Shown one piece after another: positions 23,117-56,762 of a DNA stretch of 64,000 nt. This stretch comes from an uncultured candidate division Zixibacteria bacterium (GTDB lineage: Bacteria > Zixibacteria > MSB-5A5 > GN15 > FEB-12). Every line of letters begins with the position of its first letter. Positions within the stretch are counted from its first letter, which is position 1. The notes beneath the pieces are model-generated. The model saw only the letters and a list, made by a program, of their open reading frames with translations. It did no database searches and was not told the origin of the DNA. The stretch is from NCBI GenBank assembly GCA_963707365.1, contig CAVPPI010000009.1:129778-193777 (forward strand), written 5' to 3'. Both the position numbers and the translations under genes were made by a program.

Positions 23117-24227
23117 TTGACGACTCGAAAAATGAAACTTGTCCTGATTGTTGGTGCTCGACCCAATTTTATGAAATCCGCGCCGATTTTGACTCAGCTT
23201 CAAAAGCATCCGCAGTTGTTTGAGGCGGTTCTAATACATACCGGGCAACACTATGATCACAATTTGTCCCAATTGTTTTTCGATCAATTGAAGATGCCAA
23301 AACCCGATATCTATCTGGGAGTTGGCTCCGGGACACATGCCGAGCAAACCGGTAAGATCATGGTTGAATTGGAGAGGGAATTGCTCCAACTACAGCCGGA
23401 CCTGGTGGTGGTTTTCGGCGATGTAAATTCGACTATTGCTGCCGCGATTGTCGCGGCCAAGCTGAACATAAGACTGGCTCACGTCGAGGCGGGACTGAGA
23501 AGTTTCGATAATAGAATGCCAGAAGAAATAAACCGGATAGTAACCGACAGACTTTCGGACTATTTGTTTGTGACCGAAGATGCCGGGATGGTAAATCTTG
23601 AGAACGAAGGCGTACCCGGCGAGAAGGTTTTTTACACCGGAAACATTATGATCGACTCGCTCGTGGCTCACCTCGAAGGCAGCTCGTGATTGTGACATAT
23701 TGGAGAAACTGACCCTGGAGCCAAAGAGCTACGTGGCCATGACCATGCATCGGCCATCCAACGTAGATGACCCTGAAACTCTCCAGAGGCTCATGTCGTG
23801 TATTGGGGAAATAAGCAAGCGACTGCCGGTTATTTTTCCCTGTCACCCTCGCACCCGCGCCCGGATTGAGCAGTTCGGCTTCGACCAGGGCTCCGGCACC
23901 AAAGATTTCCGCCTGATTGAACCGCTCGGCTATCTCGACTTTCTCAAACTTCAGTCGGAGGCGCGCATAGTGCTTACCGACAGTGGCGGTATTCAGGAGG
24001 AGACAACCTATCTTGGGATCCCCTGCATTACCGTCCGCGAGAATACCGAGCTTCTGGCAACTGTTGAACTCGGCACCAATACTCTTTGCGGGACCGATCC
24101 CGCTTGCATTCTGGCGGTCGTGGATGACAATCTCAACGGTAAAGGCAAAAAGGGACGGATTCCGGAGTTGTGGGATGGTCATAGCGCCGGGCGAATTGTA
24201 GATGTTCTTCGAGAGAAGCTGTTTTAA
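23117..24227 (+). CDS. wecB: UDP-N-acetylglucosamine 2-epimerase (non-hydrolysing); one +1 frameshift near 23678 as assembled
   Basis: VGARPNFMK, HTGQHY, HVEAGLRS, MPEEINR in the first piece; HRPSNVD, TDSGGIQEE in the second; the pieces join as LE-AARDCDILEKL. Confidence 0.9.
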
Positions 24228-31499: not shown

Positions 31500-32058
31500 T
31501 CAGCTTCGCAGAGCCAGTTCAAAAGCGTCTTTGAATGTCTCATAGTCGCGGGGTCCCACGAATCGTCCAATTTCGTTTCCGTTGCGATCTATGAAAATTG
31601 TCGTTGGCACGCCGGTGATACCATAGCGAATGCCCAGGTCGTTGTCTCCCATCAGCATGATCCAATTCATGCCGTTCTGCTCTGCGAAAGTGATAACGTT
31701 GCCCGGAGAGTCGCGAACGGCAAGACCGATCATCTCAATCTGATCGGAGCTGTACTCGTTGTATACCTTGACCAGATCGGGGATTTCTTTGCGGCACGGC
31801 GGACACCAGGTTCCCCAGAAATTGAGCACGACCGGCTTTTTGCCGACCCATTCTCTCGAATCGCGCAATGTGCCGTGGATATCGTAAGCCGTAAATACAA
31901 ACGTGTCGGTTGCGATCGTCGCGCAGGTTGGTAGTGTCGACCGCGGGATTGGTCTGAGCTGGCTGATTTGTCTGGTCGGCCGCCTGCTGGGATCCACATG
32001 AAGCCAGGACCAACATGGTAAATGCGATCAGGCTGAATCGGGTAATTTTTCTTAGCAT
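31500..32058 (-). CDS. TlpA/ResA-like redoxin lipoprotein; one +1 frameshift near 31923 as assembled
   Basis: LASC lipobox in the 32058 frame; NFWGTWCPPCRKEIP and YGITGVPT in the frame ending at 31500. Confidence 0.85.
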
Positions 32059-48088: not shown

Positions 48089-49408
48089 ATGTCAATCAGA
48101 AATTTAAGTCTTCTTCTCGTGGTCGCCTTAGCGGCAGTCCTGATTGGTAACGGCAGTTTATTGGCCCAGTCCGAGTCGGCAGACTCGCTTGCGAAACCCC
48201 TGACCGGCGGCGATACGGTTGTTGTATCGCAACAGGATTCTTCCGTGGTTGCTGCGGGTCTGAAATCGGATGATCAGCCTGTTTACCCGATGTCGCCCGA
48301 ACGCAAAGCAAAGCTTATCGCTTATTCGCAATTCAATCACATCTGGCGGTTTATCAGCTTCTTTTTGGGTCTGGCGGTGATGGCGCTGATACTCTTCACC
48401 GGTTTTTCCGCGAAAATGAGAAACTGGGCCGGCGTTGCGAAAAAGAAATTCTTGGTTCTGTGGTTGTTTGTCGTTCTTTTTTTGTTGGCCGACTATATCA
48501 TCAGCTTCCCTTTTAATCTTTATCGCGATTTCCTCGTCGAAGGCGAATACGGTTTCGTGAATCTGACATTCGGCGGCTGGCTGGGTGAGAGTCTTTTGGA
48601 TCTGCTGATAGCTATGATATTCGCTGTCATCCCTATCTGGCTTCTCTACTTTGCGATAGAGAAATCGAAAAAATGGTGGCTATGGGTGGCGCTGGGCGCG
48701 ATGCCCCTGGCTGTTTTTATGATAATTATCGCACCGGTTGTTATCTCCCCCCTGTTTAACAAATACGAGCCACTAAAAGACAAACAATTGGAATCAGAGA
48801 TTCTGCAGCTTGCCGGCAAGGCCGGTATTGAGGGTTCCGATGTATTTCAGGTCAACGCCTCAAAACAGTCCACGAAAATAAACGCCTACGTGACCGGGCT
48901 TTTTGCCACCAAGCGAATCGTTCTCTATGACAATATGATCGAGAATTTCGAGACCGATGAGATCAAATTCGTCATGGGACACGAAATGGGCCACTATGTG
49001 ATGAATCACGTCTGGAAAGGCCTGCTGATTGCGATAGTATTTATAGGCCTGGCTATGTGGATTACGAGCCGCACAGTCCAGCCGATAATAAACCGATTCA
49101 AACATCGTTTCGGATTCGAATCCCTGAGTGACATTGCCTCCCTTCCCCTGATTATGATAATGCTGAGCATAATGGGTTTTCTGTTTAACCCGGTTTCAAA
49201 CGGTTTCAGCCGTCACATGGAGCGCCAATCCGATAAATACGGCATGGATATTTCCGAAGTATCGGGCGAGACGGCGGCCGTGGCATTCGATAAACTTTCT
49301 GCGTTTAATCTCTCTGACCCCGACCCGCATCCAATAATAGAATTCTGGTTTTACAGTCATCCTGCGCTCAACAAACGTATAGAATTTGTACGTAATTACC
49401 GGCCGTAA
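48089..49408 (+). CDS. M48 family (Ste24-like) membrane metallopeptidase
   Basis: NAYVTG, RIVLYD, HEMGH, E..SD, SHP...RI. Confidence 0.93.
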   Translation: MSIRNLSLLLVVALAAVLIGNGSLLAQSESADSLAKPLTGGDTVVVSQQDSSVVAAGLKSDDQPVYPMSPERKAKLIAYSQFNHIWRFISFFLGLAVMALILFTGFSAKMRNWAGVAKKKFLVLWLFVVLFLLADYIISFPFNLYRDFLVEGEYGFVNLTFGGWLGESLLDLLIAMIFAVIPIWLLYFAIEKSKKWWLWVALGAMPLAVFMIIIAPVVISPLFNKYEPLKDKQLESEILQLAGKAGIEGSDVFQVNASKQSTKINAYVTGLFATKRIVLYDNMIENFETDEIKFVMGHEMGHYVMNHVWKGLLIAIVFIGLAMWITSRTVQPIINRFKHRFGFESLSDIASLPLIMIMLSIMGFLFNPVSNGFSRHMERQSDKYGMDISEVSGETAAVAFDKLSAFNLSDPDPHPIIEFWFYSHPALNKRIEFVRNYRP

Positions 49409-49420
49409 CTGTCGCCCGAA

Positions 49421-51769
49421 GTGAAAAAGGAGCATCGGTTGAAACTGGTTGCACGTTTCATCGTTATCGCCTGCCTATTGCTGATACTGTATCCTCACGG
49501 TCGTTTGTTGGCTGCCGACGGCGCCGGGCTGCAGACCGCTCTCAACGAAATGTTCAAAGGTGAACTGGATACCCTGACGACCTGTCACATCAGCGACTTT
49601 GAACTCAAGCACAAGGACCTCGAGATAGTCTTCCAACCCGGCCGGATCGCTTTTTTCAAGCCGGTTACAATCGATGGCTCCGATGTATACTATGCGGCCT
49701 ACTACGATGGTGCCGGGCAGTTCAGGTTTGCGCCCCCTGTCAGAATGGAACAGGAACAACTGAATCGTTTCTTTGCCTCTGATTCGCTCAACCGCTCTTT
49801 TAACAAAATACTGCTTCTGTTTTCATCGCCGATTTACGAGATGATTGTGGCGGCCTGTACGTCCGGCGAGGCATCACTTCATGACAACCATGCCCGTGAT
49901 GCGCGCAAATTGTTCGAGGAGATTACGAAAGACGAAAACCGGGAGTACCTCTACGAAACGCTGAGAGCTATTGTGCAGCCGGGGCAATTACCATATCTGA
50001 TGGTTCATCTGGAGCCGGACAAAAGCGATCCGGTGATTTACGTTTTCGATCCGAACGAGCGGGAGGAAGTAAGGTTTCTCAAGAAGTATGTTCAGTTGGG
50101 CTTCTCATTTATGGAGACTGTCTGCGGCTACTCACAGTACATTGATCCGGGGTATATCAACATAAACGGCCTCGATAAACATCGTATCCGCCCCGACCGC
50201 TATAATATCGATGCCTCGATCAGCCACAACGCAAAGTTTGAGGCCGCCACCGAGATGATATTCGAGGTCAAATTGGGTCCCACTCAGGTGCTAAGGATGT
50301 TGCTGCACCCGGAACTTGTCGTAGACAGTATAACCGACTCGACAGATCAAAAGATTGCTTTTGTGCGCTACGAGAAGGACAAATACAAATCGTATCCGCT
50401 ATATATGATGTTTGACCGTCCCCTGTTTGCAGGAGAGACAGTCAGGTTGAAGTTCCACTATCATGGCGACATAATCGAAAAGGAGATGGGTCAATTCTTC
50501 GTAAGGACCGGTGCGGACTGGTATCCCCGCTACGGGTTCAGGCGGAAGACGTTGTTCACTCTGAATTTCAAAACCCACAAGCAGTATGCTTTCGTAGCCA
50601 CCGGTAACCTCGTGAGGGAGGAGATTGTAGAGGACACTCTCTTTACTACCTGGAAAGTGGTGCCGCCGGCGGCCAATGTCGGATTCAATATCGGTCCTAT
50701 GGAGAAATATACGTTTGAGGGTGAAAAGGTGCCGCCTGTCGATGTCTACTTCTCTAAGGATTTCCACCGCGCCTTGGCTCTGGAGTTGGCTCAGGGGACT
50801 ACCCCGACCGGAAGAAACATGCAAAATCAGGTCGGCGAGGATGTTGTGGAAGCGCTGAAGCTGTTCACACACTATTTCGGTCCTTGTCCATATAATAAAA
50901 TAACGGTGGGTGAAGTCATGCAGCTTGGCCATGAGGCTTTTCCGGGTTTTCTTCATCTGGGAGTCGACACATGGATCAGCACTGACTATGAAGGGTACGA
51001 GCGCGCGAATCGTGCCCACGAAGTGGCGCACCAATGGTGGGGTGTGGGAGTTGGCTGGGCTACCTATCACGATCAGTGGCTGAGCGAGGGGTTCGCCGAA
51101 TACAGCTCCCTGATGTATCTTCAAGCCGTCCTCGGCAACGACAAGTTCTTAGAGCATCTCAAAGATTACCGCACCGATGTCTTCTCGGCCCGGCAGTATC
51201 TGCTCGGTTCGGGTGAGGAGTCGGGGCCGATAGCATTGGGGTATAGAACGGCGAGCACCGAAACCAGAGGCGACTTCGGACTTATTATTTATAAAAAAGC
51301 CGCCCTGGTGCTGCACATGCTCCGTAACATGCTTATCGATTTCCAGACGATGAATGAAGACTTGTTCATGAATATGATGAAAGAGTATTACGGATTATAC
51401 CGCGGCCGTGATGTAACCACTGCCGATTTCAGACGGCTGACCGAGAAATATACCGGTGGTGACATGGGATGGTTCTTCGATCAATGGATCTATTCCAGCG
51501 ATTTGCCAACCTACAAGTTCTCCTACAACATCGAGAAGGATTCTTCGGGCACTTTTACTGCCTACTGTCATGTGGTAACGACCGGCGTGCCCGAGGACTT
51601 CATGATGTATGTTCCTCTGGAAATTGAGATGGACGACAAGACCAAAGCGTATATCCGTATTTTCATCGATCGACCCGATTTCGATTTCACCCTGCCCGGT
51701 TTGAAAAGCAAGCCCCGGAAACTGCGATTGAACCCGTTCGAATCCGTCCTTGCCCGGGTCGAGCAGTAG
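49421..51769 (+). CDS. M1 family aminopeptidase, exported
   Basis: AHEVAHQWWG..WLSEGFAEY, IYKKAALVLHMLR. Confidence 0.92.
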   Translation: MKKEHRLKLVARFIVIACLLLILYPHGRLLAADGAGLQTALNEMFKGELDTLTTCHISDFELKHKDLEIVFQPGRIAFFKPVTIDGSDVYYAAYYDGAGQFRFAPPVRMEQEQLNRFFASDSLNRSFNKILLLFSSPIYEMIVAACTSGEASLHDNHARDARKLFEEITKDENREYLYETLRAIVQPGQLPYLMVHLEPDKSDPVIYVFDPNEREEVRFLKKYVQLGFSFMETVCGYSQYIDPGYININGLDKHRIRPDRYNIDASISHNAKFEAATEMIFEVKLGPTQVLRMLLHPELVVDSITDSTDQKIAFVRYEKDKYKSYPLYMMFDRPLFAGETVRLKFHYHGDIIEKEMGQFFVRTGADWYPRYGFRRKTLFTLNFKTHKQYAFVATGNLVREEIVEDTLFTTWKVVPPAANVGFNIGPMEKYTFEGEKVPPVDVYFSKDFHRALALELAQGTTPTGRNMQNQVGEDVVEALKLFTHYFGPCPYNKITVGEVMQLGHEAFPGFLHLGVDTWISTDYEGYERANRAHEVAHQWWGVGVGWATYHDQWLSEGFAEYSSLMYLQAVLGNDKFLEHLKDYRTDVFSARQYLLGSGEESGPIALGYRTASTETRGDFGLIIYKKAALVLHMLRNMLIDFQTMNEDLFMNMMKEYYGLYRGRDVTTADFRRLTEKYTGGDMGWFFDQWIYSSDLPTYKFSYNIEKDSSGTFTAYCHVVTTGVPEDFMMYVPLEIEMDDKTKAYIRIFIDRPDFDFTLPGLKSKPRKLRLNPFESVLARVEQ

Positions 51770-51774
51770 GTTCT

Positions 51775-52464
51775 TTGGAAAGTTCGATAAGAGTAGAATT
51801 GCCGGAAGAATTCGCTACGCTCCGCGACCGTGAGGGACTGTTGGAACTCTGCCAGTATCTTAAGCAGGCCAATTCTCCAGCAGTCGGCACTCTCGAACAA
51901 ATCCACTCGCAATGGACTATTCTGTCTGAAGAACTCCGCCATGATCAGGCTTATTGCCTCTTTGTGGAGACTTCCGGCGAGAGCGACCATGGCCGACTTC
52001 GCGCCCTGCGGGCAAGTGTAGAGTTATTCGGGAAATCGGCTACGACCGATGAGATCACGTTTGAGAACCAGATAAAGGCCCCCGATGATCCCTTTGTGGG
52101 AAGCTCTTATAACGCTCTTTCATCTCTCCGGGAGTATTTTCAAACCCATGGCTACAAAGACAAGGCGGGCAGATACTACCACGGACATTTCAATTTAGCT
52201 GACAGCAGCCAGACATTCACGGGCGACTCGATCGGTCTTGGAGTGGCGGCGGTAACATTTGCGGGACTTATGAAGACCGAGGTAATGCGTCATGAGCGCC
52301 TCATATCGCAGGAGGTTGCATTTACAGGTGGGGTTGACGAGACCGGTAATATTACGTCGGTTAACGAAGACACGCTCCGTGAGAAGATATCGCGCGCCTT
52401 CTTTTCGCATATCAAATTCCTGGTGCTGCCCGACGGGACAACATCCGTACCGCGGAGAGAATAG
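51775..52464 (+). CDS. Lon (S16) protease C-terminal-like domain; probably the N-terminal part of a frameshifted fusion with 52509-53684
   Basis: TGDSIG (Ser), VAFTGGVD..G.I..V, EK (Lys), LVLP; the expected P..N continues in another frame at 52440. Confidence 0.7.
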   Translation: MESSIRVELPEEFATLRDREGLLELCQYLKQANSPAVGTLEQIHSQWTILSEELRHDQAYCLFVETSGESDHGRLRALRASVELFGKSATTDEITFENQIKAPDDPFVGSSYNALSSLREYFQTHGYKDKAGRYYHGHFNLADSSQTFTGDSIGLGVAAVTFAGLMKTEVMRHERLISQEVAFTGGVDETGNITSVNEDTLREKISRAFFSHIKFLVLPDGTTSVPRRE

Positions 52465-52508
52465 TTGGCGAGCTTGATCAGCGGAGTACCCGACGGCGGA
52501 CCCTTCAT

Positions 52509-53684
52509 GTGGTTGCGTATTCTCGGTTGGCCGATATTCTGGACGACAAGAACGTGGTTCGTTCCGAGAAGGTGTGTATTGGTCAGTATGTTGCCCGCAA
52601 GGCGGTGCGCTACAGCCGCGCGACTCATATCCAGGTGCCGATACTTCTGGCGCTGGCATACCTGTTGATCAGCCTTATCTATCCGAAAGCGTGGGTGGGG
52701 TTTGATGATAATCCGGCTTATGTGAAACCGACAAAAAATGGGTTCATAGCGGTGAATGTGAACTCGACGCCTCTGTGGTCTAAAACGTACGATGTGGATT
52801 CGCTGGCCTCCGCCCGGACTTACACCATTGGCGATCTCGATTCTGATGGCAAGAATGAAGTGGCTTTCGTCCCCAAACCCGGGCTTTCATCTAACATGGA
52901 AGCCGTTTTGTACTTGTACGATCACGACGGCAAAGAGTTGTTCGCGAGACCTTGCACAATCGAGGCTGAGTACCCCGGCGATTCTACTGCTGATTTGAAT
53001 TACTATCCATCGACCGTGGAGTTTGTTCAGACCGACAAAGGCGTACGGATAGTATGTTGTGTGTGCCGAGAATATCCTGCCCGAACTCACATCACGGTGT
53101 GGAACTCGGATGGCGAGAGTCTGGGATGGTACATCAACTCCGGATTTGCCCACCAACGGGGAGTGCTTGAGTCCGGCGCCGCTGGCGGGCAAAAACTGCT
53201 GGTTTTTACCTGCACCAACAATCGCGTTGGCAGTTCCGGCCTTTTTGGCTTATACGTTGATTCAAGTTACGGCGTGTCCCCGCCATTCTCTGATACGATT
53301 TACGCTCTTGACGGCGTGACGCGAGGGAACCAGTACTCTTATGTTATGCTGCCGCGTTCGGATGTAAGTATTGCCCTGCGAGCCAGATATAACACAATAT
53401 ACAGGATAGTCTTTGAGGCCAGCGGCCGTTTCATGGTGGATCTGAGTCCACTAACCGATACGTTGAATTACGCCACATACTTCTTCGATGATCGCATGAG
53501 AGTGGGCGGCGTCAAGTTATCAGACGGATTTCATACTCAAAGAGACCAGCTTGTCGATCGGGGGCTGCTTTCCGAAATCAACTCAGGCGACTACACAGAA
53601 GAACTTCTTCGCGCCGTAACCTATTGGACTGACTCTGGCTGGGTGACCGAGGGCCAGCTCCGGGCCGCCGAAAAACCCCACTGA
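52509..53684 (+). CDS. Single-TM protein with periplasmic FG-GAP/propeller-like domain (frame open from 52440)
   Basis: Basic stretch, then TM IQVPILLALAYLLISLIY; GDLDSDGKNEV Ca-loop. Confidence 0.7.
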   Translation: MVAYSRLADILDDKNVVRSEKVCIGQYVARKAVRYSRATHIQVPILLALAYLLISLIYPKAWVGFDDNPAYVKPTKNGFIAVNVNSTPLWSKTYDVDSLASARTYTIGDLDSDGKNEVAFVPKPGLSSNMEAVLYLYDHDGKELFARPCTIEAEYPGDSTADLNYYPSTVEFVQTDKGVRIVCCVCREYPARTHITVWNSDGESLGWYINSGFAHQRGVLESGAAGGQKLLVFTCTNNRVGSSGLFGLYVDSSYGVSPPFSDTIYALDGVTRGNQYSYVMLPRSDVSIALRARYNTIYRIVFEASGRFMVDLSPLTDTLNYATYFFDDRMRVGGVKLSDGFHTQRDQLVDRGLLSEINSGDYTEELLRAVTYWTDSGWVTEGQLRAAEKPH

Positions 53685-53828
53685 TTTTTCTACAAATCTT
53701 CTCTTTAGCTGCTATTACATCTGCAGAAGCAGCCCACCAATGCGGTTCGCAGTCAACTCAACGAACGAGTGCCGAATGCGGATCATGGCAGCAGATGGGC
53801 ACTTATACCAAAAAATAGGGAGGCCTAA

Positions 53829-55811
53829 ATGTTACGGACCAAGTCCATAGCTATTGTCACAATTGTGGCCGCGCTCGCGATCTCACTGTTAGTGTCCAGC
53901 TGTTCGAATGAAAACCCCGCAGAGTCGTCTGAGCAAGAAACGATAATATCGGGGAACGTAACGGCTCTGGGCGAAAGTAGCGCCGTAGAGTTGGATAGTA
54001 CTGACGGCGTGAACTACTACTTTTCCGTAGGCGGAGACGTGCCCCACCTTAATCCCGGAGACATCATTGTGGGCACCGACAATTCCGGTTTCTTGAGGAG
54101 AGTATCCGCCGTCTCGCAGGAGGGTAGTCTGCTTAGCATCACTACAGGGGATGCTGTTCTAACGGACGCTTTCGTAAAGTGTAGTCTGCAGGCCACAGTA
54201 CCACTGACGCTCGATGACGCGATGAATAAAGCAGTTACCGAACCAGCTAAGGGCGGATATAAAATGGAAGGTGTCTCGATCACAGAAGAAGGTATCGATT
54301 TGAGCGGCGTAACTCTTTTTTCTGACGAGAACAACACCGTAAGAATATCTGGCGGTTATGTGAACTTCGAACCTGTCTTGGATCTTGGCTTTGAAATAGA
54401 GGACCGGGTCTTGAAGGAGTTCCACGCCATCGGGTCTGGTGAGCTAAACAGCTCGCTTGACATTATAGCTAGTTGCGGTTCGATTGGCCTTTCAGGGGAT
54501 ACGATTCTTGCTGAAATACCGGTGGGCAAGACGGTAGTGTGGGTAGAGTATGTGCCGGTAGTGATAACGTCCACGCTCCGGTTTAGGGCTGGTTATGCCG
54601 TAGAAGCTTCGGTACTCGCTCTGCAGGCTGGATATGAGGGCTCTATCAGCGTCGCTTGTGGTGCGAGCTATGAAAACTCTGAATGGACCACTGTTTGGGA
54701 AAAGACGCTAAACTGTGCTGCGCACGATTGTGATTGGATTGAATCACCTAATACACAGGTCAAAGTGTACATTAGACCAGAAATTGATGTGGAGATATAT
54801 GCTGTCGCTGGGCCAAATCTAGGAGTTGAAGGTTACCTTGAGTATTGTGGTGAGGTCGATGGCCAGCAATGGTCATGGACTCTGAGTGGTGGAATAGCTG
54901 GCTACCTTGGTATTCGAGTGCACATCTTGTCTTGGGATTTGGTGGACCGCAGCTGGGAGCTAGTCAAATGGGAAACGACGCTTGCGGCAGATACTGGTGA
55001 AGTAAGTGGGCCGCTTATTATAAGTGAGCAAGACTTTACCGGAGATGGTACCCTTGACATCAGAGCGGACAACGGCGTGATGTGGATACAGATCAATAGA
55101 GATCAGGTACAGCAGGCCGGGCGGTTTATTGACGCAGGCGGGATGAGTGGAAAGGAGAGCTTCTTGCGTAACTTCATACAGGCGGGTGGCTTGGTCGACG
55201 GAGTGGCATATTGGTCAACGCGCAATTTTGATGTAGATGTGCTCGAGAACAGCGCGCAAACGGGCACCTACAGGGTGACTGCGATCGATACCGCCAATGG
55301 AAAGGAAGTTACAAAAGTATTTACGGTAACACTCAACGCAGGTGAGGAAAGCGCATCGATTGGTTATGATTTCACTAACACGGGAGATGCAAGTTGGTCT
55401 TATGACCACCCGCTTTCTCACATTCACGATGGGGCGGCGCTTGCCAACGTGACTTCGTCTGAGACGCTTGATATTGACGCCTATATAAACGGTGTAGGAC
55501 TTATTGGACTTTCTTCAACTGGTTTGTGGCGCAGCTACACGCCCGATAACGAAGCACCCTTTGCCGTTCTTTTCGAACCGTCATCTAGCGAAGCCGTCAC
55601 TTACGGTTTTGATGGGCTTTCCGAACATCCCATGAACCAGATAGTCTCTTACTATACGGGTTTGACCTCCGAAATTACACCGACATTGGATTTTCAAGCC
55701 GCCGAATTTACACTATCCCCAGGTGCTTCCACCCAATGGCGGGCACTCATAGCCTTCCATACTGGTGGTGATACCAAGGGTATCGAAATATATAATAATG
55801 CGACTTGGTGA
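53829..55811 (+). CDS. Large beta-rich hypothetical lipoprotein
   Basis: 660 aa; GGGAGG RBS; LLVSSC lipobox. Confidence 0.75.
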   Translation: MLRTKSIAIVTIVAALAISLLVSSCSNENPAESSEQETIISGNVTALGESSAVELDSTDGVNYYFSVGGDVPHLNPGDIIVGTDNSGFLRRVSAVSQEGSLLSITTGDAVLTDAFVKCSLQATVPLTLDDAMNKAVTEPAKGGYKMEGVSITEEGIDLSGVTLFSDENNTVRISGGYVNFEPVLDLGFEIEDRVLKEFHAIGSGELNSSLDIIASCGSIGLSGDTILAEIPVGKTVVWVEYVPVVITSTLRFRAGYAVEASVLALQAGYEGSISVACGASYENSEWTTVWEKTLNCAAHDCDWIESPNTQVKVYIRPEIDVEIYAVAGPNLGVEGYLEYCGEVDGQQWSWTLSGGIAGYLGIRVHILSWDLVDRSWELVKWETTLAADTGEVSGPLIISEQDFTGDGTLDIRADNGVMWIQINRDQVQQAGRFIDAGGMSGKESFLRNFIQAGGLVDGVAYWSTRNFDVDVLENSAQTGTYRVTAIDTANGKEVTKVFTVTLNAGEESASIGYDFTNTGDASWSYDHPLSHIHDGAALANVTSSETLDIDAYINGVGLIGLSSTGLWRSYTPDNEAPFAVLFEPSSSEAVTYGFDGLSEHPMNQIVSYYTGLTSEITPTLDFQAAEFTLSPGASTQWRALIAFHTGGDTKGIEIYNNATW

Positions 55812-56571: not shown

Positions 56572-56762
56572 GTGTCAGGTCACACCCCGACTGCGTCGGG
56601 CCAAGCCCTGACACAACGGGAACGGAGACTGCGTCGGGCCAAGACCTGACACAACGGGATTGGCGCTGCTGCTTCCGTGTCAGGTCACACCCGGACTGCG
56701 TCGGGCCAAGACCTGACACAACGGGAACGGGGACTGCGTCGGGCCAAGACCTGACACAACGG
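56572..56762. repeat. Cluster of REP-like palindromic elements (105-bp period duplication)
   Basis: Full elements gtgtcagg...cctgacac at 56572 and 56677; 31-nt core gactgcgtcgggccaag(a/c)cctgacacaacgg at 56589, 56627, 56694, 56732. Confidence 0.85.

Follow-up and report, generated by a model that had tools for sequence, protein, structure and literature searches.

A 5'-truncated copy of a conserved gene for a putative Lon-fold receptor protease in a Zixibacteria genome

Introduction

The window analysed here, a 64-kb stretch (64,000 nucleotides) of a Zixibacteria genome whose positions serve as coordinates throughout, contains two adjacent open reading frames (ORFs) between 51775 and 53684. 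Their translations seemed to combine a Lon-type protease domain with a transmembrane (TM) helix and a periplasmic propeller. A first-pass annotation had proposed a one-component transmembrane signalling protease, which raised the question of whether such a protein exists and whether this genome still has a working copy of it. We found at 51775-53684 a copy, 5'-truncated and frame-broken, of a conserved uncharacterised gene that is referred to below as C0, the receptor-protease gene. In its relatives C0 is accompanied by two upstream genes, C1 and C2, and by a downstream gene, C3. The C0 family is probably a sensor-gated variant of the Lon-fold protease, and the window copy is probably a degraded member of it. 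Taken as a whole, the explanation that we favour on balance is a C0 receptor-protease module with a logic like that of the CalpL protease, the window copy of which was truncated by a deletion.

Results

The two reading frames belong to one gene

The window gene comprises the following features.

51775..52464, plus strand: ORF A, 229 residues as listed, frame 1, with an uncertain TTG start
52509..53684, plus strand: ORF B, frame 0 as listed, the frame being open upstream to 52383
52437..53684, plus strand: continuation of the ORF B frame, with the end of the Lon domain, linker, TM helix, periplasmic beta-propeller and C-terminal domain
52228..52230, plus strand: codon of the putative catalytic Ser (FTGDSIG), aligned to the GDS Ser of A. 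fulgidus LonB
52384..52386, plus strand: codon of the putative catalytic Lys (REKISRAF), 52 residues past the Ser
52432..52436, plus strand: frame break, five bases between LVLP (frame 1) and DN... (frame 0), where the syntenic genome G002 of the same genus has three
52629..52685, plus strand: single predicted TM helix IQVPILLALAYLLISLIYP, helix 427-445 in the ortholog model
52701..53525, plus strand: periplasmic beta-propeller domain, with approximate borders
52833..52859, plus strand: FG-GAP-like loop DLDSDGKNE inside the propeller domain
53526..53681, plus strand: small C-terminal helix/strand domain, with the family-wide motif VTYWTDSGWVTEGQLRAAE at 53616-53672

The ORFs, motifs, TM helix and DLDSDG loop described in the first-pass annotation were thus all present. 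ORF A contains the end of a helical domain and most of the Lon/S16-fold protease domain. Its LVLP ends at 52431, and from 52437 frame 0 reads DNIRTAERIVGELDQ...LHVVAYSRLADILDD as its continuation; DNIRTAERIV... begins at 52437, with the Asn codon at 52440. The basic stretch ARKAVRYSRATH precedes the hydrophobic helix. Together with the lack of an N-terminal signal sequence, the positive-inside rule indicates a topology with the N-terminus inside and the C-terminus outside, from which we infer a cytoplasmic protease domain.

A search with the C-terminal piece returned 28 proteins. Nineteen of the 27 non-self matches were single proteins of 631-725 residues that spanned both pieces, and the shorter matches came mostly from contigs of 2-5 kb. 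When 18 full-length relatives were aligned with the window pieces, the frame break was the very point at which the pieces met, and conservation in the Ser and Lys columns was at least 90%. A profile search of 1.84 billion cluster representatives found 3437 members at E<=1e-3, of which 728 reached E<=1e-30; among the 150 best matches, lengths of 700-800 residues prevailed. The comparisons show that, as the first-pass annotation had proposed, ORF A and the ORF B frame are pieces of one gene and no chance arrangement. The fusion of ~635 residues that had been proposed stood in this respect, but it is not full length: the relatives are single ORFs of about 670-800 residues, and similarity to the ortholog in G002 starts, from window position 51799, at residue 152 of 779.

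A scan of one genome per species yielded 28 public C0 loci. They were mostly from Zixibacteria metagenome-assembled genomes (MAGs), while others were labelled Ignavibacteriales, Abyssobacteria, Acidoferrum or bacterium; most finds of C0 are in MAGs with the label Zixibacteria or Ignavibacteriales. The family was matched by no Pfam or NCBIfam model above its curated cut-off, and Pfam scans of 14 longer or atypical members revealed no new cytoplasmic domain.

The protease domain has a Lon/S16 fold with an invariant Ser-Lys pair

Conventional domain models recognise the protease domain poorly. Against Pfam Lon_C, ORF A scored 11.7 bits (E 0.18) and did not reach the gathering cut-off of 21.1, and Lon_C was found at E<=0.1 in only three of 20 family members. 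Because of this weak score, the Lon assignment rests on the comparison of the family profile with the PDB and on the fold. The profile matched the proteolytic domain of A. fulgidus LonB (E 2.7e-5), with GDS aligned to GDS and Lys to Lys. G295, S297 and K349 (G002 numbering) were invariant in all 112 aligned C0 sequences, which bears out the expected conservation of the catalytic dyad. The domain represents a divergent subfamily that current models do not capture.

An AlphaFold2 (AF2) model of the G002 protein (779 residues), built with the 112-sequence alignment, had a mean predicted local distance difference test (pLDDT) score of 92.6. From the N-terminus on, it showed a helical domain followed by the Lon/S16 protease domain; one TM helix leads from there to a periplasmic beta-propeller and a small conserved C-terminal domain. 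Foldseek searches with this model returned Lon protease domains, LonA among them, at E 3.9e-10, with a TM-score of 0.85 normalised to the E. coli Lon proteolytic domain. Structural alignment of the protease domain with VIA-align gave the following Z scores.

BsLonBA: Z 22.4, with a root-mean-square deviation (rmsd) of 2.3 over 177 residues
E. coli Lon: Z 21.7
Archaeal LonB domains: Z about 20
RadA, ComM and BrxL: Z 17-19
CalpL: Z 12.6

The protease domain of the model is preceded by a helical domain of ~195 residues and no AAA+ module, and no AAA domain of Pfam was found in the window pieces or in 20 family members. Residues ~97-195 of the helical domain overlay the helical subdomain that precedes the protease in LonA, at a high rmsd of 5.9-6.0 (VIA). 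C0 is therefore predicted to contain an ATPase-less Lon/S16-fold protease with an invariant Ser-Lys pair; the Z score of 22.4 on the ortholog model agrees with the earlier assignment of a Lon/S16 fold lacking AAA+.

The presence of RadA and ComM among the structural matches raised the alternative that C0 signals by binding, its Lon-fold domain lacking catalytic activity and serving as a scaffold like that of RadA/Sms or ComM. We consider this very improbable. The invariant Ser and Lys align to the catalytic pair of LonB, and the Z scores of active Lon protease domains (20-22) exceed those of RadA and ComM.

No SAVED domain was matched by Pfam in the window pieces or the 20 family members. The CRISPR-Lon and SAVED-Lon models of PADLOC matched ORF A weakly (E about 8e-4) and only over the Ser-to-Lys stretch, and PADLOC gave no match for C0, C1 or C2 of G002.

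The propeller diverges faster than the rest of the protein

The first reading of the locus had placed a propeller after the TM helix, and both Pfam and the fold agreed with it. FG-GAP_3 was found in 12 of 20 family members and FG-GAP in six. Residues 454-753 of the ortholog model aligned with beta-propellers, among them a designed six-blade protein, BamB and integrin alpha, at moderate Z scores of 11-12 (VIA). A word-based search with the periplasmic part alone found only fragments of the C0 family. An Atlas structure search also pointed to clusters in which a similar TM-plus-propeller part may follow a Trans_reg_C DNA-binding domain, a candidate for another output.

Amino acid identity between the window gene and G002 was distributed as follows.

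Remaining helical part: 82%
Lon domain: 83%
Linker and TM helix: 95%
Propeller: 35%
C-terminal domain: 57%

The genes flanking C0 are 75-91% identical between the two genomes. The nucleotide alignment to G002 was lost over 52779-53621 and returned at 90% for 53622-53733. The gene downstream of C0 was swapped as well, that of the window being unrelated to that of G002. The same trend was seen across the family: among 19 pairs with at least 70% identity in the Lon domain, propeller identity averaged 43%, and the extreme pairs had 85% against 24%. Such divergence suggests a sensor-like pattern of evolution. The C0 module is an accessory module whose outward-facing part is quickly remodelled, and the fast propeller divergence together with the swapped secreted gene offers a handle on ligand specificity.

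C0 lies in a conserved module with an anti-sigma-like protein

Clustering of the ORFs of the 28 loci revealed the conserved order C1-C2-C0-C3. At least 2 kb of sequence 5' of C0 was available in 25 loci, the other three starting at or near C0. C2 lay directly upstream of C0 in 24 of the 25 and C1 was present in 23; the exceptions were L011, without C1 and C2, and L018, without a detected C1. The neighbourhood search that had been suggested for finding substrates thus brought up an anti-sigma-like gene next to the protease. The analogy with CalpL that the first-pass annotation had drawn gained unexpected support in this way, since intact relatives are nearly always preceded by a gene for an anti-sigma-like protein of the zinc-binding anti-sigma (ZAS) type. 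The idea of a one-component system did not hold, because the family belongs to a conserved module that counts three to four genes.

C2, at ~275 residues, is soluble, has no TM helix and carries an N-terminal HxxxCxxC anti-sigma-type domain, whose H27, C31 and C34 do not vary in any of the 24 sequences. Its profile matched the anti-sigma factor RsiW (E 8.7e-4), RslA (2.3e-3) and DdvA (0.032), and we regard it as a putative ZAS-type anti-sigma-like protein. As it lacks a TM helix, C2 would be on the same side of the membrane as the C0 protease domain. An invariant LAA.G motif lies ~60 residues past HxxxCxxC, where it occupies the columns of residues 93-96 in G002 numbering and separates the anti-sigma-like N-terminal domain from a C-terminal part rich in beta structure. 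This motif might conceivably be a cleavage or docking site for the C0 protease.

C1 is a helical protein of ~340 residues whose model had a pLDDT of 88.8. Its profile found nothing meaningful in the PDB, the best match being a designed protein (E 0.071). The secreted C3 is variable and may carry FG-GAP repeats, dockerin, fn3 or type IX secretion system (T9SS) sorting domains. In 16 of the 22 loci with a downstream ORF, the next gene was on the same strand and had a signal-like hydrophobic start, as judged by eye.

The frequent secreted neighbour on the same strand allows a different view of C0, as an envelope processing or quality-control protease, degrading or maturing proteins of the membrane or of secretion, C3 precursors for example, with the propeller as an anchor or recruiter and C2 and C1 as regulators or adaptors. 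LonB is the closest sequence match, and quality control is the role of membrane-anchored Lon proteases such as archaeal LonB. Nevertheless, C0 has no AAA+ unfoldase to feed it folded substrates, and its protease domain would be cytoplasmic whereas C3 is exported. The tight linkage with C2 and the fast-evolving propeller also fit a regulated-proteolysis sensor better. We therefore judge a quality-control role unlikely, and take the C0 family to be probably a receptor-protease module.

A deletion truncated the window copy

The surroundings of the window gene are described by three further features.

49421..51769, plus strand: M1-family peptidase, a flanking gene outside the C0 module
51770..51799, plus strand: deletion junction, 30 nt without a counterpart in G002, replacing ~2406 bp
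53829..55811, plus strand: downstream gene, 660 residues, with a lipoprotein-like signal sequence; it is at the position of C3 and has no detectable similarity to C3

G002 is syntenic over the whole window, with M48 (75% amino acid identity), M1 (78%), C1, C2, C0 (779 residues), C3 (784 residues), two small ORFs and a major facilitator superfamily (MFS) gene (91%). The ~2406 bp in G002 hold C1, C2 and codons 1-151 of C0. At the nucleotide level, the 3' end of the M1 gene aligned up to its stop, and similarity resumed at 83% over 51800-52778. ORF A is 88% identical to residues 152-365 of the G002 protein, and its first eight codons are non-homologous filler. A deletion of ~2.4 kb cost the window genome C1 and C2, together with the first 151 C0 codons.

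ORF A abuts the M1 peptidase gene because the deletion took its upstream partners and these codons. It does start 5 nt past the M1 stop at 51769, as had been noted; the context is a deletion scar, with two genes and 151 codons in between in G002. The closeness of C0 to the M1 gene is such a scar and no functional link. A link of the M1 and M48 genes to C0 was also considered and rejected, as tblastn of the window ORFs from 37 kb on against the 28 loci matched only the C0 pieces. No M1 or M48 neighbour was found in these loci at E<=1e-5, nor did the 660-residue downstream protein or the other ORFs of this search have a counterpart there.

The window's own assembly consists of 9 contigs and is 97.5% complete. 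Profile searches of this genome found no C1, no full-length C2 and no second C0. With 151 residues and both partners gone and the frame broken, the window copy may have lost its function altogether. Of the other genomes of the genus, G002 and G004 carry an intact module and G003 a partial one, and none was found in G001; the window has a truncated form.

Two other loci showed incomplete modules. In L011:8001-10424, on a Zixibacteria MAG contig of 403 kb, C0 is in three ORFs (277, 203 and 286 residues). This is the same pattern as in the window and suggests recurrent decay. In G003:C1:958000-975000 (L044) neither C1 nor C2 lies next to a C0-like ORF of 524 residues, which the C-terminal query of the window matched with its first 90 residues only.

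Some further features of the window lie outside the C0 module. The M48 peptidase (Ste24/HtpX-like, 439 residues) and the signal-anchored M1 peptidase (782 residues) are encoded in tandem at 48089-51769 and are unrelated to the module. A tandem array at 56572-56762, between the Smr-domain and MFS genes, has a period of ~38 (4.8 copies) or 105 (1.8 copies, 96% matches). Its units contain a GTGTCAGGTC/GACCTGACAC palindrome, and the array yields spurious minus-strand ORFs. Rfam gave no match in this repeat region.

Discussion

Proposed mechanism and the points against it

In the scheme that we favour, the propeller would sense a periplasmic or surface cue, possibly the co-varying C3. Sensing would switch on the cytoplasmic Lon-fold protease, which would cleave the soluble anti-sigma-like C2. 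Cleavage of C2 would free or activate C1 and thereby change gene expression. The scheme would be a trans-membrane counterpart of the CalpL-CalpT-CalpS logic.

A number of observations weigh against this explanation, and the first group concerns the module. The structural evidence comes from the model of an ortholog and not from the window protein itself. zf-HC2 was found in 14 of 24 C2 members, and all zf-HC2 and NCBIfam anti-sigma matches were below the curated cut-offs. What points to cleavage of C2 by C0 is gene order and the analogy with CalpL. Pfam gave only scattered chance matches in 22 C1 members and no Sigma70_r2 or r4 at E<=1, Foldseek gave nothing at E<=0.001, and hhalign against an alignment of nine extracytoplasmic function (ECF) sigma factors from the genome of the window returned a probability of 0.15%. 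In the VIA search, at least 10 of the 50 listed rows were sigma factors on residues 1-124, matched through sigma region 2 at Z 5.5-7.5, a range which according to the tool can stem from a common helical arrangement. The Atlas search gave unnamed clusters only, one of them with Sigma70_r2 in 15% of its members (TM-score 0.35). C1 is thus not demonstrably a sigma factor.

The second group concerns the status of the window copy. Its two pieces run through 640 codons with the frame break as the sole stop, so the copy is not old debris, and the event seems to have been recent. Among the 43 genes with a G002 ortholog, two others are also split in the window, which makes three splits in 64 kb. An assembly indel may therefore account for the break, and a shorter protein may still be made from the copy. 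Short contigs from three soil-metagenome runs of one study, with word shares of 0.07-0.09, covered 51898-52208 only, between the junction (51770-99) and the break (52432-36).

As to the other two splits, the UDP-N-acetylglucosamine 2-epimerase gene (wecB) is divided into 23117..23689 and 23700..24227, covering Epimerase_2 positions 3-162 and 178-347. It is one ORF of 376 residues in G002, and the split is either an assembly indel or a real frameshift. A gene for a redoxin/thioredoxin-like lipoprotein on the minus strand (31500-32058) is split near 31960, with the signal-peptide part at 31735..32058 and the redoxin domain at 31500..31997 in different frames; G002 has one ORF of 196 residues.

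These splits point to assembly indels, and they open the way to an alternative in line with the first-pass annotation. In it an assembly error produced the break, and the window encodes a working orphan receptor-protease, shortened and translated from ~51775, perhaps by coupling to the M1 gene, that signals or processes substrates without C1 and C2. The stop-free codons, the retained catalytic Ser and Lys, the Lon, TM and propeller parts that are complete on read-through, and a start position that would permit translational coupling are all consistent with it. However, such a protein would lack 151 N-terminal residues of a confidently folded helical domain, and the partner genes of 23-24 of the 25 loci are not in the window genome. 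Its TTG start lies at the head of the filler codons and is unsupported. The break is a surplus of 2 nt relative to G002, not a simple homopolymer miscount, and the decay at L011 looks much the same. We consider a working orphan unlikely. Because consensus indel errors are plausible with three splits, we did not count the frame break as decay; it is mainly because of the 2.4-kb deletion, an event of another kind, that we take the window copy to be probably defunct or orphaned. It is probably a recent remnant or, at best, an orphan.

A bolder form of our reading can be stated only tentatively, and we would sooner bet against it than for it. Here C0 would be a new class of trans-envelope, single-pass receptor protease, in which a cue at the propeller (possibly a T9SS-secreted C3) would activate the Lon-fold domain, which would cut C2, perhaps at LAA.G, and so act on C1 as a regulator of a new family. 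The module itself occurs widely among Zixibacteria and Ignavibacteria-like lineages, and close relatives often differ by its loss or remodelling, the window being a case in point.

Significance

Envelope signals are known to reach transcription by way of two-component kinases, through membrane-bound one-component regulators, or by cascades in which membrane-spanning anti-sigma factors are cut. If the proposed scheme is true, a single polypeptide with a sensor outside and an ATP-independent Lon-fold protease inside, paired with a soluble anti-sigma-type partner, would be wired differently. The CalpL principle of a sensor-gated Lon domain cleaving an anti-sigma factor, so far one of antiviral second messengers, would then apply to extracytoplasmic signals as well. 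For genome annotation, the locus should be labelled as a truncated copy, and its proximity to the M1 gene is meaningless.

Comparison with known systems

Archaeal LonB, LonA and LonC (MEROPS S16) have the protease fold and the Ser-Lys pair in common with C0, and C0 is membrane-anchored like archaeal LonB. Unlike these proteases, C0 has a TM helix after the protease domain, leading to a large periplasmic domain. It has neither an AAA+ module nor a degenerate one as in LonC, and the helical domain of ~195 residues stands instead.

YlbL and SepM-type proteins are PDZ-Lon ATP-independent proteases. ATP-independent Lon-like proteases differ from C0 in their accessory domains and topology, and we know of none with a TM helix and a beta-propeller or with an anti-sigma-like partner. 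Like these enzymes (PMC3391209 is an example), C0 would have a Lon domain that works without ATP-driven unfolding. A search of the full-text literature, with most subscription journals lying outside it, found no paper on a Lon domain that is joined to a TM helix and a propeller, and no Lon domain paired with an anti-sigma factor outside CRISPR. In the FG-GAP passages of a survey of serine-protease architectures from 2008, the only protease listed with this repeat is trypsin.

A close parallel is CalpL-CalpT-CalpS, which comprises a type III CRISPR SAVED-Lon protease, an anti-sigma factor and a sigma factor of ECF-like type, as far as the accessible part of its description goes (10.1101/2024.05.08.593097). 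CalpL and C0 are alike in that an ATPase-less Lon-fold Ser-Lys protease is fused to a sensor and encoded beside an anti-sigma-type protein. In contrast, CalpL is soluble and senses cyclic tetraadenylate (cA4) through SAVED, while the sensor of C0 would be the periplasmic propeller beyond the TM helix. No CRISPR context was seen for C0, its protease domain is nearer to LonA and LonB (Z 20-22) than to CalpL, and C1 is no recognisable ECF sigma factor, unlike CalpS.

In the DegS/RseP-RseA and PrsW/RasP-RsiW systems, a membrane-spanning anti-sigma factor is cut by S1, M50 or other proteases. These systems and the scheme proposed for C0 share the path from an envelope signal to proteolysis of an anti-sigma-type protein. 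The arrangement in the membrane is reversed relative to the RseA and RsiW systems: in the C0 module the predicted protease spans the membrane and the anti-sigma-like C2 is soluble.

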